A stretch of DNA of 64,000 bases, taken from the IMG/VR virus record IMGVR_UViG_3300032285_001029, positions 64,001 to 128,000 of that record; one strand, given 5' to 3'. The notes beneath the pieces were generated by a model that saw nothing but the letters and a program-made list of their open reading frames with translations, ran no database searches and was not told the origin of the DNA. The translations under genes were made by a program, and so were the position numbers. How positions within the stretch are numbered: position 1 is the first letter of the stretch; each line of letters begins with the position of its first letter. Below, piece after piece: positions 8,352 to 27,070 of this stretch. The DNA comes from a virus.

Positions 8352-8936
8352 TTATACGATTTCTACATAACTTACAACAGCGTCTAAACCACCGGACCCG
8401 TAACTATATACATTAATTGTAGTGCTAGTTCCTAATACCATACGCTCACCACCATTGACTAATTTTAATACTTGATTCTGAGGTATAATCATTTTATATG
8501 CATAATAAGCAGATGTATTTGAATTTGCATTATCAACTAGTTGTACGTTAACTACTTGTAAATCATCTGTACAGTTAACTAGTGCTAGACCTACAACTGT
8601 TATCTTTGCATTACTTGGACTAGTAAGTAAACTAGTAGTTTTGTTTATAATTCCTGTCATGTTGCCTCCATTGCCTGTTCCAACATTAAACGGAGGACCG
8701 CCTAGACTAGTACTTATAGTAATTTCAGTAGAACTTTCAACAGTAATAATGTAATAAGTTCCTGCAATTAAATTTCCAATAGTTGTGCCCAGTACAATAA
8801 GTTCCATTCCTACAGCTAAACCTGTAGTAGAATCAACAGTTACAATATTTCCTACTTGATTAGTATCTGTAATTGTAATTTCTAAACCAGTAGCACCGAT
8901 ATTTGAACTTAATGCATTTTTAAACGTAGTTGCCAT
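8352..8936 (-). CDS. Virion structural protein (194 aa), paralog of 12980..13297 with an inserted module
   Basis: C-terminal half (VVGLALVNCT..ERMVL..AVVSYVEI) parallels IIVCNTS..EKMVL..ATVSTL of the 105-aa protein. Confidence 0.75.
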   Translation of the reverse strand: MATTFKNALSSNIGATGLEITITDTNQVGNIVTVDSTTGLAVGMELIVLGTTIGNLIAGTYYIITVESSTEITISTSLGGPPFNVGTGNGGNMTGIINKTTSLLTSPSNAKITVVGLALVNCTDDLQVVNVQLVDNANSNTSAYYAYKMIIPQNQVLKLVNGGERMVLGTSTTINVYSYGSGGLDAVVSYVEIV

Positions 8937-14518: not shown

Positions 14519-15811
14519 TTATTGACTTTGTGTAGTTTCTAAACGAACACCGGCTGAATTACTGTCTGGACGGGGAATCTCAGCACCACTGTTACCCCAT
14601 CTTACTAATTGTCCGCGTGGGTACACATTTGGATCAGCAAATATTCCTAGACTTGGATTTTTACGAACTACTATGCACTTATGTGCTGTAACTTTAGTTA
14701 CCCAGTATTCGTGATCGTCATCGTCCCAAGCTGTTAAACTTGCTTGACCTAGTGCTGCAGGAGCGTGTGCATATAATCTTGCACTGACTACACTACCAAC
14801 AGCAGCTTTTAAAATATATGTTCGTGTACCACGTTGTCTAATAACATCAGTATCTCGAACTTGGCCGTTAATATATGATTTGAATAACAAAGTATATCTT
14901 GAACTAGAGCTGCCACCGACATTAGTATCAGTAGTATTCCAATCAAACCCATCGATCGATGCGTTACCTGTTGCAAATGCAATAGTAGTATCTTGGCGTA
15001 CATAACCACGATTACGATTTGCACCTGTTCCATTTAATACATCAATGCTTAATACTCTATATGTTGTGTTGACTGTTAAACCTGTACCTTCTGTAGAAGT
15101 TGTTACAACTGATGTAATATCTCCTGGCAATGCTGTGTAGTTACCACGATTTGTAATGTTAAGTGTTTTAGCAGTCCACTGACCATCTAAATTAATAGTT
15201 AACCCTGCTGCTGCTCCACTGTTTGTAGTTGTTAGTATACCTGTTGGCAATACTGTATAACTACCTGCGTTAGATAATGTTAATTGTGTTACACGGCCAT
15301 AAGGAGCAGTTGTACCACCTGCACCAACATTAAGACCTGTTACTGTAAAAACAGCAGCTTGACTAAACGTACCGCCTTGTACTGTGATTGTGTCGCCGAT
15401 ACCATAACCTTGTGCGCCAGTTCCACCAACGACTACAATGCCTACACCGCCTGGCGTTGAGTATGCACCGTCAAATGTTGTGCTGTTGTTGCCATGTACA
15501 CCTGCTGTTGCAAGAGTATATGTAGCTTGTATTCCTGTTCCACCAGTAGCTGTGATAATGCTAGACATGGTGTAACCTTTGCTGTTTACCTGTTCTTGTG
15601 GAGCTGCTGCGCTAACTTCCATGTGTACACGATAAGTTGCTGCTACCCCAGCTGGCAATTGTGGAGCTGTTATGTTTAGTGCTGGAATAGCAGTATAACC
15701 GCTACCTTTACTGTCGACATAAATGTCAGTGATTGTAATGCCGCCTTCGTTTGGTAATACACCGTTTTCGTTTCTATTACCAAAGTATAATGATTTAATT
15801 GGACGTCCCAT
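14519..15811 (-). CDS. Structural protein downstream of the major capsid gene (430 aa, MGRPIK...), possible head decoration
   Basis: Start re-assigned to the ATG at 15811, which follows AAGGAG SD (the ORF-track extension to 15880 lies in the structured leader); GSGY/G.GY beta repeats. Confidence 0.75.
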   Translation of the reverse strand: MGRPIKSLYFGNRNENGVLPNEGGITITDIYVDSKGSGYTAIPALNITAPQLPAGVAATYRVHMEVSAAAPQEQVNSKGYTMSSIITATGGTGIQATYTLATAGVHGNNSTTFDGAYSTPGGVGIVVVGGTGAQGYGIGDTITVQGGTFSQAAVFTVTGLNVGAGGTTAPYGRVTQLTLSNAGSYTVLPTGILTTTNSGAAAGLTINLDGQWTAKTLNITNRGNYTALPGDITSVVTTSTEGTGLTVNTTYRVLSIDVLNGTGANRNRGYVRQDTTIAFATGNASIDGFDWNTTDTNVGGSSSSRYTLLFKSYINGQVRDTDVIRQRGTRTYILKAAVGSVVSARLYAHAPAALGQASLTAWDDDDHEYWVTKVTAHKCIVVRKNPSLGIFADPNVYPRGQLVRWGNSGAEIPRPDSNSAGVRLETTQSQ

Positions 15812-24981: not shown

Positions 24982-26142
24982 TTATTTCTGAACTAGTTGT
25001 CCAGTTTGCGGATCACGAGTATAGCCTGCAGGAGCTGGTTGTGATTTTCTATAAGCAGTCAATGCATTTTGATCAATTGGCTCATACCACTTTGTCGGCG
25101 TTGGAGCAGCTTTATCATATTGTTTCATAGCAGCAGGTGTACCACCATCAGGTCCTGTAGTACTAGTTGCTGCAATATCCTGTTGTGCTGTTGGGCTAGG
25201 TTTTGCAGATTGTTGTGTACCATTAGCTGTGCCAGTAGTTGCTGCAGTTGTACTAGTTGTATCAGGAGTTTGATTTGATTGTCCAATTATTGAATCAATT
25301 ATTCCGCCAGCAGCACGGATTGCTGCTGCTTCGATAGTCTGTACATAATCTGTTACATTAGGAAAATACTGTTGTAGCCAAGTAAACAGCATAAATCTTG
25401 CGATTGTTTCAGATCCCTTGTCAGTTGCTGCCCATGCCATAAATGTAGCTTGTCCTACAGTAGCAACTTTTTGTAGAAATGCATCTAACCCAGGAAAATT
25501 TTTAGATATAATTTTCCAGCTGGCAAATGATCTTATTAGTTTATTACCTATTAACACACCTGCTATTCTGCTTACGCACCAAGAAGTTTCTTGTTTATAC
25601 AGTGCATTATATTCATCTTGTGTGATTGTTCCGCTTTTTAGTGCTGCTTCGCCTTTGCGCAAATTAACCACACACTCGTATACCGGTTGTCCAACATCCC
25701 ATAGACCCAATGCACCCCACACAACTGATCCTGCTTTGTTCATGACGTTCCATGCTGTTCCAACTGGAGCAACAATACGAGCAATCTTATCTTTAATTGC
25801 TTGTACGCCACCTTTAATTGCAGATATTTGATCCTGTCGTATTAATTTTTCTGCTTCTTTTCTAGCACTTTTAATAATATCTTTCCATTCGGGATTATTA
25901 ACAGTGAAATGTCTACGAGCTTCGACTTTACCAACGGCAGCTTCTAGTTGTGCTAGTACTGCTTTACGATTTATCGAAGTACCTGCCTTACTTGCACGAA
26001 CCATTTCTTGTGCAAAAAGATCTATAAGTTTTTGCTTAGTCGCAATTCCTCCTATAGATTTAGCACCATATGCTAAAGCTTTACCAATTAGTCCTTCTTC
26101 ATGAAGATGTTGGTTAGGTGTAATTATGTCAAGTATTCGCAT
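24982..26142 (-). CDS. Hypothetical late protein (386 aa), possibly internal/ejected virion protein
   Basis: AATAAATA at 26172-26165 upstream; helical body with hydrophobic segments and a Thr/Pro/Gln-rich tail. Confidence 0.7.
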   Translation of the reverse strand: MRILDIITPNQHLHEEGLIGKALAYGAKSIGGIATKQKLIDLFAQEMVRASKAGTSINRKAVLAQLEAAVGKVEARRHFTVNNPEWKDIIKSARKEAEKLIRQDQISAIKGGVQAIKDKIARIVAPVGTAWNVMNKAGSVVWGALGLWDVGQPVYECVVNLRKGEAALKSGTITQDEYNALYKQETSWCVSRIAGVLIGNKLIRSFASWKIISKNFPGLDAFLQKVATVGQATFMAWAATDKGSETIARFMLFTWLQQYFPNVTDYVQTIEAAAIRAAGGIIDSIIGQSNQTPDTTSTTAATTGTANGTQQSAKPSPTAQQDIAATSTTGPDGGTPAAMKQYDKAAPTPTKWYEPIDQNALTAYRKSQPAPAGYTRDPQTGQLVQK

Positions 26143-26179: not shown

Positions 26180-26626
26180 TAAGATGAACTACGTTCATCT
26201 GCTCTTCGCTCACGCTCGAGCATTTCTTCTTTTTAATATTATTGAACTATTATAATGCGAAGCATTTTAAATATTATCCAGATTGTTCAGTCACACTTAG
26301 CCCAGGGCGGGCTAAGAACATTATCCGAGTTGCACAATGTCACACAGCGTTATGGCATTACAGAGGCGGTCAGCCTGTACCTCGAGCCACGTCTTTCCTG
26401 ACGGCGGTTTACAAACATACGCTATCATGCTTGTAAACGTAGGGTTTTCTCCCTTCATTTTGCCTTTAAATCCGTTTCAAATAACCAAACAGCAGGGCTT
26501 ACAAAGCTGTCATCATCCATTTTGGGTAGTGGTTAAGCACTCTTGCGGCAGAGATTTATGTCCGAGTGACTCGTGGTCCTCTTGTCATATGCGCACGAAA
26601 TAAGCCTGCGCTAGCCAAAAACCGCT
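26180..26626 (-). ncRNA. Putative large structured non-coding RNA / cis element downstream of the GIY-YIG gene
   Basis: About 47% GC over 26281-26580 (hand count) in an AT-rich genome; about 10 stems, several needing G-U pairs only on the minus strand; pseudoknot complementarity; no credible ORF. Confidence 0.65.
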
Positions 26627-27070
26627 TTATTTTGCCTGTTTATCTTGAGATTTGCGTATATGTGAACCATGCACACGCACTTGAATATGCCCGTTATAAT
26701 AGTCATTTGACTCTAGAACACGGCGAGAAAACTGCTCTCGTGCTTCGATATAGCTAGCTTCTGGCTTACTGGAACAGTAAAAAAGTATCTCTCTTTTAAA
26801 GTTTTCTGGTCCTAATTCTACGACATCTTTGTTTAATTCTATATTAGAACCGTAGTATTCGCGCCAATCGCTGTCTATTTTTGACTTTATCTTTTGCCTT
26901 TTTTTGTTGCCATTCTTGAATTTAACTACTTTGTAAGTAGTTTTGCTGAATTTTGCCAGCTTTTTGCCTATATACATGCGTCCTGTAGTAAGATTAGTAA
27001 TAAGATATACAAATCCTACGCAATCTTCAGGTAGATTTTCTATTATTTCGTTTTGATAATACCAGGACAT
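26627..27070 (-). CDS. Stand-alone GIY-YIG endonuclease (T4 endonuclease II/Seg-like catalytic domain)
   Basis: GFVYLITN-x5-MYIGKK, W.EYYGS, F.REIL, E.REQF..VL..YYN motifs; no NUMOD or HTH tail. Confidence 0.85.
   Translation of the reverse strand: MSWYYQNEIIENLPEDCVGFVYLITNLTTGRMYIGKKLAKFSKTTYKVVKFKNGNKKRQKIKSKIDSDWREYYGSNIELNKDVVELGPENFKREILFYCSSKPEASYIEAREQFSRRVLESNDYYNGHIQVRVHGSHIRKSQDKQAK

Follow-up and report, generated by a model that had tools for sequence, protein, structure and literature searches.

A doubly pseudoknotted RNA with twin identical boxes follows a small nuclease gene in uncultured T4-like phages

Genes Around the Noncoding Gap

The DNA analyzed here (herein the window) is a 64-kb stretch of a 141.9-kb fragment from an uncultured T4-like phage; as the fragment is estimated to be 38% complete, its source is probably a jumbo phage. 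On the minus strand of the window, gp47- and gp46-like recombination nuclease genes (27337 through 30122) are followed by an 88-codon open reading frame (ORF) and then by a stand-alone gene for a GIY-YIG nuclease of 147 residues (26627 through 27070). Between this gene and a 386-codon ORF of no known family, which begins with an ATG at 26142 on the same strand, lies a noncoding gap of 484 nt (26143 through 26626). The initial annotation described a gap of about 480 nt, the largest in the window, with 142 G+C among the 300 positions 26281 through 26580; that count is exact. When two chance ORFs inside it are disregarded, no other internal ORF-free stretch of the window matches the gap in length, the others being 227 nt or shorter; the second largest (227 nt, 24755 through 24981) separates a baseplate gene from the end of the 386-codon ORF. 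The G+C content of the gap is 42.6% against 36.7% for the window as a whole. A coding function was considered and rejected: neither the 45-residue ORF at 26321 through 26458 nor an 88-residue ORF on the plus strand is conserved across homologous loci, and no conserved ORF was found in the gap across 69 such loci.

The gap marks the transition from the gp47-gp46 recombination block to the late genes. Just 5′ of the next gene, the minus strand reads ATAAATA (26165 through 26171), which resembles the T4 late-promoter core (TATAAATA); the same heptamer stands at the corresponding position in 34 of 57 relatives and TAAATA in 38 of them, and by analogy with T4 it may act as a late promoter. A simple scan upstream of the gap element found no sigma-70 promoter of its own.

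The nuclease is assigned by Pfam to the SegE-type GIY-YIG family (PF19835; residues 3 through 129 of 147, E = 1e-31), and neither a further domain nor a DNA-binding domain was found beside the catalytic one. The description of the protein as a GIY-YIG catalytic domain lacking NUMOD and helix-turn-helix domains therefore stands; its Lys-rich stretch, initially read as an insertion, is instead a feature of the whole family, shared with phages that lack the RNA described below (Melnitz-3, P-HM2, and P-SSM2), and is here merely six residues longer. The protein belongs to PHROG family phrog_447 and is 41% identical (E = 4e-16) to PSSM2_218 of cyanophage P-SSM2 (L206:1012-1449). PSSM2_218 carries the annotation “NAD synthetase,” as does much of the family in GenBank cyanophage records; the Pfam assignment corrects this to a GIY-YIG nuclease. 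The family is common among cultured T4-like cyanophages and their relatives (510 phage records), and its gene comes after gp46 in 123 of 129 loci.

A Doubly Pseudoknotted RNA on the Minus Strand

We show that the gap encodes a real structured noncoding RNA of about 430 nt, read from the minus strand and doubly pseudoknotted. Over 596 viral contigs carry genes for relatives of the GIY-YIG protein, and in the 80 best of these the whole gap is conserved directly after the gene at 70 to 80% nucleotide identity. In an alignment of 57 sequences (A1), mutual information marks base pairs along the entire element, and a structure of 78 pairs was written from mutual information together with RNAalifold. 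Across the 57 sequences, 88.2% of the paired cells can pair, against 36 to 42% when partners are slid by one to three columns, and the observed pairing values were reached in none of 500 shuffles. Covariation, which the initial annotation had proposed as a check on its reading, is extensive: 59 of the 78 pairs show compensatory double changes, in an element conserved behind homologous genes. With 306 G-U cells against 84 A-C cells, it is the minus strand that folds; the early argument from wobble pairs is thereby upheld. Folding of the single sequence gives only a weak signal (z = −1.9 for the minus strand and −1.25 for the plus strand).

The 5′ domain of the RNA (26479 through 26616) is a full-length copy of Polynucleobacter-1 (Rfam RF01718). 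The cmscan match spans 138 nt and model positions 1 through 141 of 141, with a score of 83.1 bits (gathering cut-off 37) and E = 4e-16; the RNA had at first been taken for no known family, which fails for this 5′ third. The helices of the Rfam model (helices 1, 3, and 5) are 95 to 99% paired in relatives, with many double changes. Several stems of the initial annotation fall into place here: GCGCA/UGCGC has double changes in five of five pairs, AACCA/UGGUU and ACAGC/GCUGU are paired in 95% and 99% of cells, and CUCU/AGAG is part of the Rfam model. The same Rfam search, also proposed at the outset, returned no match to group I or II introns, RNase P, tmRNA, ROOL, GOLLD, or HEARO over 26000 through 26800, even at E values up to 10, and ARAGORN found neither a tRNA nor a tmRNA. 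For the remaining ~300 nt there is no Rfam match; the best candidate, cow-rumen-2 (21 bits, E = 0.25 in the window), was rejected when the match was not reproduced in eleven relatives. No informative relative was found by sequence among solved structures. Elsewhere in the window, positions 15809 through 15891 of the minus strand match the freshwater-2 RNA (RF02980) with confidence (70.9 bits, cut-off 49.9), which gives this phage one more orphan motif already listed in Rfam.

Polynucleobacter-1 was reported by Weinberg et al. (2010, Genome Biol 11:R31, PMC2864571); they saw it in none of the purified phages and assigned it no function. [quoted passage not shown] The location in the window agrees with this, the gene upstream of the RNA being PSSM2_218-like. 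Since PSSM2_218 is a homolog of the GIY-YIG nuclease, the neighborhood of gene and RNA has been on record since 2010, with the gene then not recognized as a nuclease. The flanks in the 2010 alignment file already contain parts of the 3′ core (PMC2864571), and that core is also found with a different 5′ domain that RF01718 misses. The catalogued motif covers about one-third of the RNA, and the pseudoknotted core, the twin boxes, and the tail are absent from Rfam. Polynucleobacter-1, an orphan entry since 2010, is thus only the leading portion of a far longer RNA with two knots.

Downstream of the 5′ domain, two hairpins have compensatory changes at every pair, AGGG/CCCU (helix 6, 26441 through 26454) and a 13-bp hairpin (helix 7, 26407 through 26438; eight of eight pairs supported); both had been seen in the initial annotation. 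The loop of the 13-bp hairpin enters pseudoknot 2 (26346 through 26423), in which AGCGU (26419 through 26423) pairs with ACGCU (26346 through 26350) to form helix 8; 97.5% of its cells are paired, all five pairs show double changes, and the helix has a mutual-information signal. Pseudoknot 1 (26352 through 26402; helices 9 through 12) was likewise identified by mutual information. Its helix A (26398 through 26402 with 26369 through 26373) crosses helix C (26386 through 26390 with 26352 through 26356) and helix B (26380 through 26383 with 26363 through 26366); 99% of the helix A cells are paired, one pair being UA in 30 sequences and CG in 27. The bases of helix A had been assigned to a CGUC/GACG stem, for which we find no support. 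Inside the knot lies the invariant pattern GGUAC(C/A)GG...ACCGCC. A covariance model of the core, R1, matches 26269 through 26407 of the window with 127.6 bits.

Two boxes, set in the loops of two small hairpins and discussed below, follow the core, and between them stands a spacer hairpin of 8 bp (helix 13, 26296 through 26316), present across variants with differing stem sequences. Of the remaining stems in the initial annotation, UGGC..GAGG/CCUC..GCCA and CUUAGCCC/GGGCUAAG are supported, and ACAUUGU/AUAAUGU weakly so. The tail (26182 through 26265; helices 14 through 17) consists of a small hairpin (26255 through 26265), an A-rich stretch, and two further hairpins (26201 through 26221 and 26182 through 26200); helix 17 shows double changes in seven of seven pairs, and the tail is likely the 3′ end or a terminator region. 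At the other end, the RNA starts about 10 nt past the upstream stop codon (10 to 15 nt in relatives), and because of this short distance it would most likely be made by read-through of the gp47-gp46-nuclease transcript. Its expression, ends, and processing are inferred.

The RNA and Its Nuclease Neighbors

To what extent RNA and nuclease belong together was counted from both sides. Scanning of GIY-YIG-seeded loci with R1 placed the RNA behind the gene, on the same strand, in 73 of the 73 loci with enough flank, among them cases missed by BLAST and by RF01718 owing to a different 5′ domain. The initial observation of a structured minus-strand RNA directly after the nuclease gene thus extends to a conserved pairing. 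Starting instead from the invariant RNA pattern alone, we obtained 85 true RNA loci with upstream DNA; 78 (~92%) have the GIY-YIG gene, and in 82 (96%) a small nuclease precedes the RNA in the same orientation. The GIY-YIG gene is directly upstream of the RNA in 70 loci (37 to 81% identity) and about 1.1 kb upstream in 8, with an unrelated gene of 257 to 346 codons between. Inserted genes of ~300 to 345 codons without a Pfam or PHROG family occur at L016:3440-4453, L017:566-1606, L037:3426-4451, and L112:4369-5259; in L107 the inserted gene is methyltransferase-like.

In four of the 85 loci the GIY-YIG protein is replaced by a PD-(D/E)XK protein of 168 to 176 residues (L127:3963-4484, L118:3893-4423, L154:9348-9854, and L106:1198-1719; PF24608, phrog_244). 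A gp46-like gene precedes this nuclease in L118 and L154, which is the slot held by GIY-YIG in the window; two unrelated nuclease folds therefore replace one another in a single genomic slot. PHROG annotates phrog_244 as a Holliday junction resolvase (“RusA-like”), and this annotation, together with one weak Hjc match, suggests a resolvase role for the slot. In L106 an RNase H gene lies between nuclease and RNA. The RNA of L127 aligns to that of the window over gap positions 10 through 456, yet follows the PD-(D/E)XK protein.

Three RNA-seeded loci (L171, L108, and L094) have no nuclease near the RNA. L171 also contains a tmRNA gene of the permuted, two-piece type (RF04321, 92.5 bits) as well as a tRNA gene (3911 through 4304 and 5169 through 5240). 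Conversely, Melnitz-3, P-HM2, and P-SSM2 have the nuclease and lack the RNA; no blastn match to the RNA was found in isolated phages, and R1 found none in Melnitz-3 or P-HM2. The co-occurrence check proposed with the idea of a joint nuclease-RNA system accordingly shows that each of the two occurs alone.

These counts bear on the possibility that the RNA is a partner of the preceding small nuclease, either as a 3′-untranslated-region (UTR) element acting on expression or mRNA stability or as a protein-binding scaffold or inhibitor; twin loops would suit a dimeric enzyme. In favor of such a coupling are the RNA behind every GIY-YIG homolog with enough flank, the small same-strand nuclease in nearly all RNA loci, persistence of the link down to 37% protein identity, and an RNA start so close to the stop codon that no room is left for a promoter. 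The occupation of one slot by two unrelated folds counts on the same side, as the RNA could need an adjacent nuclease. Against it, a nearly unchanged RNA accompanies either fold (L127), inserted genes split the pair in eight loci, each member exists without the other, and phages that lack the RNA also have the basic stretch in the protein; moreover, the box alleles described below flip between close relatives far faster than the specificity of a protein could follow. We consider this coupling unlikely. A looser link is conceivable: given 96% adjacency and an RNA start within ~15 nt of the preceding stop codon, the RNA could exert a 3′-UTR effect on the upstream mRNA or enter a protein-RNA complex.

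Twin Boxes, Their Possible Partner, and Known Systems

Flanking the spacer hairpin are box 1 (AACUC-GGAUAAU-GU, 26318 through 26331, with its 7-mer at 26320 through 26326) and box 2 (AAUCU-GGAUAAU-AU, 26271 through 26284, with its 7-mer at 26273 through 26279). The second 7-mer lies 47 nt after the first. In 57 of 57 sequences the two boxes share one 7-mer, and the same is true of all divergent variants. A tree was computed from the remainder of the RNA, and parsimony on it puts at least 14, 3, 4, and 3 changes at the four variable positions, each shared by the two boxes and none with an intermediate, which amounts to at least 24 independent concerted changes among the 57 sequences. There are at least 13 alleles of the 7-mer, seven in A1 and six more in divergent members (GGAUAAA, AGAUAAA, AGAUGAA, AGUUGAA, AUGAAGA, and UGGUAAU, each present twice), in which the 7-mers lie in the loops of 4-bp hairpins. 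In the 2010 alignment, the copy from the Polynucleobacter genome likewise contains two occurrences of AGCGAAAG (PMC2864571). The allele of the window, GGAUAAU, is preceded by ACUC in box 1 and AUCU in box 2, and the fixed CUC versus UCU difference just 5′ of the 7-mer argues against simple gene conversion. In a natural variant, L086 (RNA core near 8516), box 1 and the spacer hairpin are missing and box 2 alone is left. A ribosome hop of the gene 60 kind (GGA UAA ... GGA UAA) was considered and rejected, as no conserved reading frame enters box 1. On comparative grounds, concerted change of the 7-mers is the signature of a sequence-specific partner, and the reader of the boxes would most simply be a nucleic acid that binds both loops.

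A partner in cis was sought first by covariation. No column covarying with the boxes was found within the RNA, in 520 nt upstream (the nuclease gene), or in 470 nt downstream; the highest mutual information with the box states was 0.3 to 0.5 elsewhere, against 1.0 between the boxes themselves. Nine alleles were searched over 1.5 kb in each direction, and none had a full-length complement there. One candidate was a U-rich strand closing the 5′ domain (26479 through 26487), similarly placed in some variants, which can pair with both boxes (9 bp, 3 of them G-U); it was rejected as unproven because it is unchanged in sequences with the GCAUAAU allele and shows no covariation, and the matching “sites” in divergent members belong to one arm of a common hairpin that pairs with itself. 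In the whole 142-kb fragment, just one long perfect complement came up, a 12-nt match to box 1 in the large-terminase mRNA, outside the window (G000:C1:29937-29948). The homologous site in seven other phages does not track the box alleles, and we regard the match as due to chance. No box partner was thus found in the 142-kb genome fragment.

Our leading reading, on which our confidence is evenly divided, is that the RNA acts alone and in trans, through its twin loops, on a nucleic-acid partner, with the GIY-YIG gene a fixed neighbor and not the effector. The knotted core would serve as a stiff frame presenting two single-stranded loops of identical sequence, and both loops would base-pair with two copies, or two sites, of one partner that changes fast between phages. 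The GIY-YIG protein would fill a slot for a small structure-specific nuclease of the resolvase type at the end of the recombination gene block, and the RNA would end at the conserved hairpins just before the putative late promoter.

The initial annotation had proposed the RNA as a possible guide, scaffold, or inhibitor for the nuclease, and an independent large phage RNA as an alternative. It is the alternative that fits better, although the RNA may still be tied to the nuclease through regulation or contact. A search for a variable segment within a conserved scaffold, suggested at that stage, found no hypervariable guide-like segment in alignments A1 and A2; the only fast-changing parts are the two identical 7-mers. 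There is no such segment, a swap of nuclease fold and inserted genes are tolerated, and RNA and nuclease can each be found without the other. On these grounds, a guide-RNA system explains the data less well than a set gene order in which recombination genes are followed by a small structure-specific nuclease of one fold or the other, then by the RNA, and then by late genes, and the guide proposal finds no support.

A role in replication or packaging, in which the RNA would form an R-loop with its own DNA and either prime DNA synthesis or flag a position next to the recombination genes, seems to us distinctly improbable. It would draw on the location at the border of the gp47-gp46 block and the late genes, on the RNase H gene between nuclease and RNA in one relative (L106), and on the size and elaborate fold, reminiscent of RNA II. 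But nothing in the sequence requires it, neither an AT-rich unwinding element nor repeated binding sites were seen, an R-loop on the RNA's own template leaves the identity of the boxes unexplained, and the covariation favors a folded free RNA.

It is also very doubtful that the RNA gene is a conserved target beside which free-standing selfish nucleases have settled, in the way that T4 seg and mob genes adjoin the genes they cut. The SegE-type domain, the presence of different nuclease families at one spot, and the extra genes inserted there in some phages would suit homing. Seg-type homing endonucleases are marked by a C-terminal DNA-binding domain and by sporadic presence; here the catalytic domain (3 through 129 of 147) stands alone, and the gene accompanies the RNA at 78 of the 85 loci from the RNA-seeded scan and keeps its place behind gp46 at 123 of 129. 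Common across T4-like cyanophages as well, it behaves as vertically inherited. Hardly credible, finally, is a reading of the boxes as jump sites at which a polymerase would repeatedly copy the ~47-nt unit between them, the new strand re-annealing on the identical other box as in the repeated copying of telomerase RNA templates and likewise in DRT2 reverse-transcriptase template jumping, even if, were it true, it would explain box identity whatever the sequence and give the adjacent structure-specific nuclease a processing role.

Once found, the partner of the boxes could point to a new RNA-based step in how these phages replicate, recombine, or take over the host. Among uncultured freshwater T4-like phages, some of them jumbo phages, a large clade carries the RNA as a regular component.

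Among known systems, IscB/TnpB with its omega-RNA (HEARO) shares the arrangement of a compact nuclease gene adjoining a large structured RNA on the same strand. The IscB/TnpB nuclease is of the RuvC type, whereas here it is GIY-YIG or, in relatives, PD-(D/E)XK; the RNA lies downstream, with no long variable guide, no transposon ends, and no HEARO match. Of the three marks of that class, a RuvC nuclease, a scaffold with a guide, and obligate co-occurrence, the locus shows none. Type III toxin-antitoxin systems of the ToxIN kind place tandem antitoxin RNA repeats upstream of an endoribonuclease; here the RNA is downstream, its complex fold contains only two short boxes, and the gene encodes a GIY-YIG nuclease, so the locus falls outside that class. 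ColE1 RNA II and the T4 oriF and oriG transcripts form persistent RNA-DNA hybrids (R-loops), and the RNA may resemble them, by analogy only, as a long folded transcript with possible DNA pairing near replication and recombination functions. It is smaller than GOLLD and ROOL and has no sequence or model similarity to them, and twin identical loops are, to our knowledge, not a described feature of either; like GOLLD and ROOL, it is a large, intricately folded, and widespread phage RNA found by comparative genomics.
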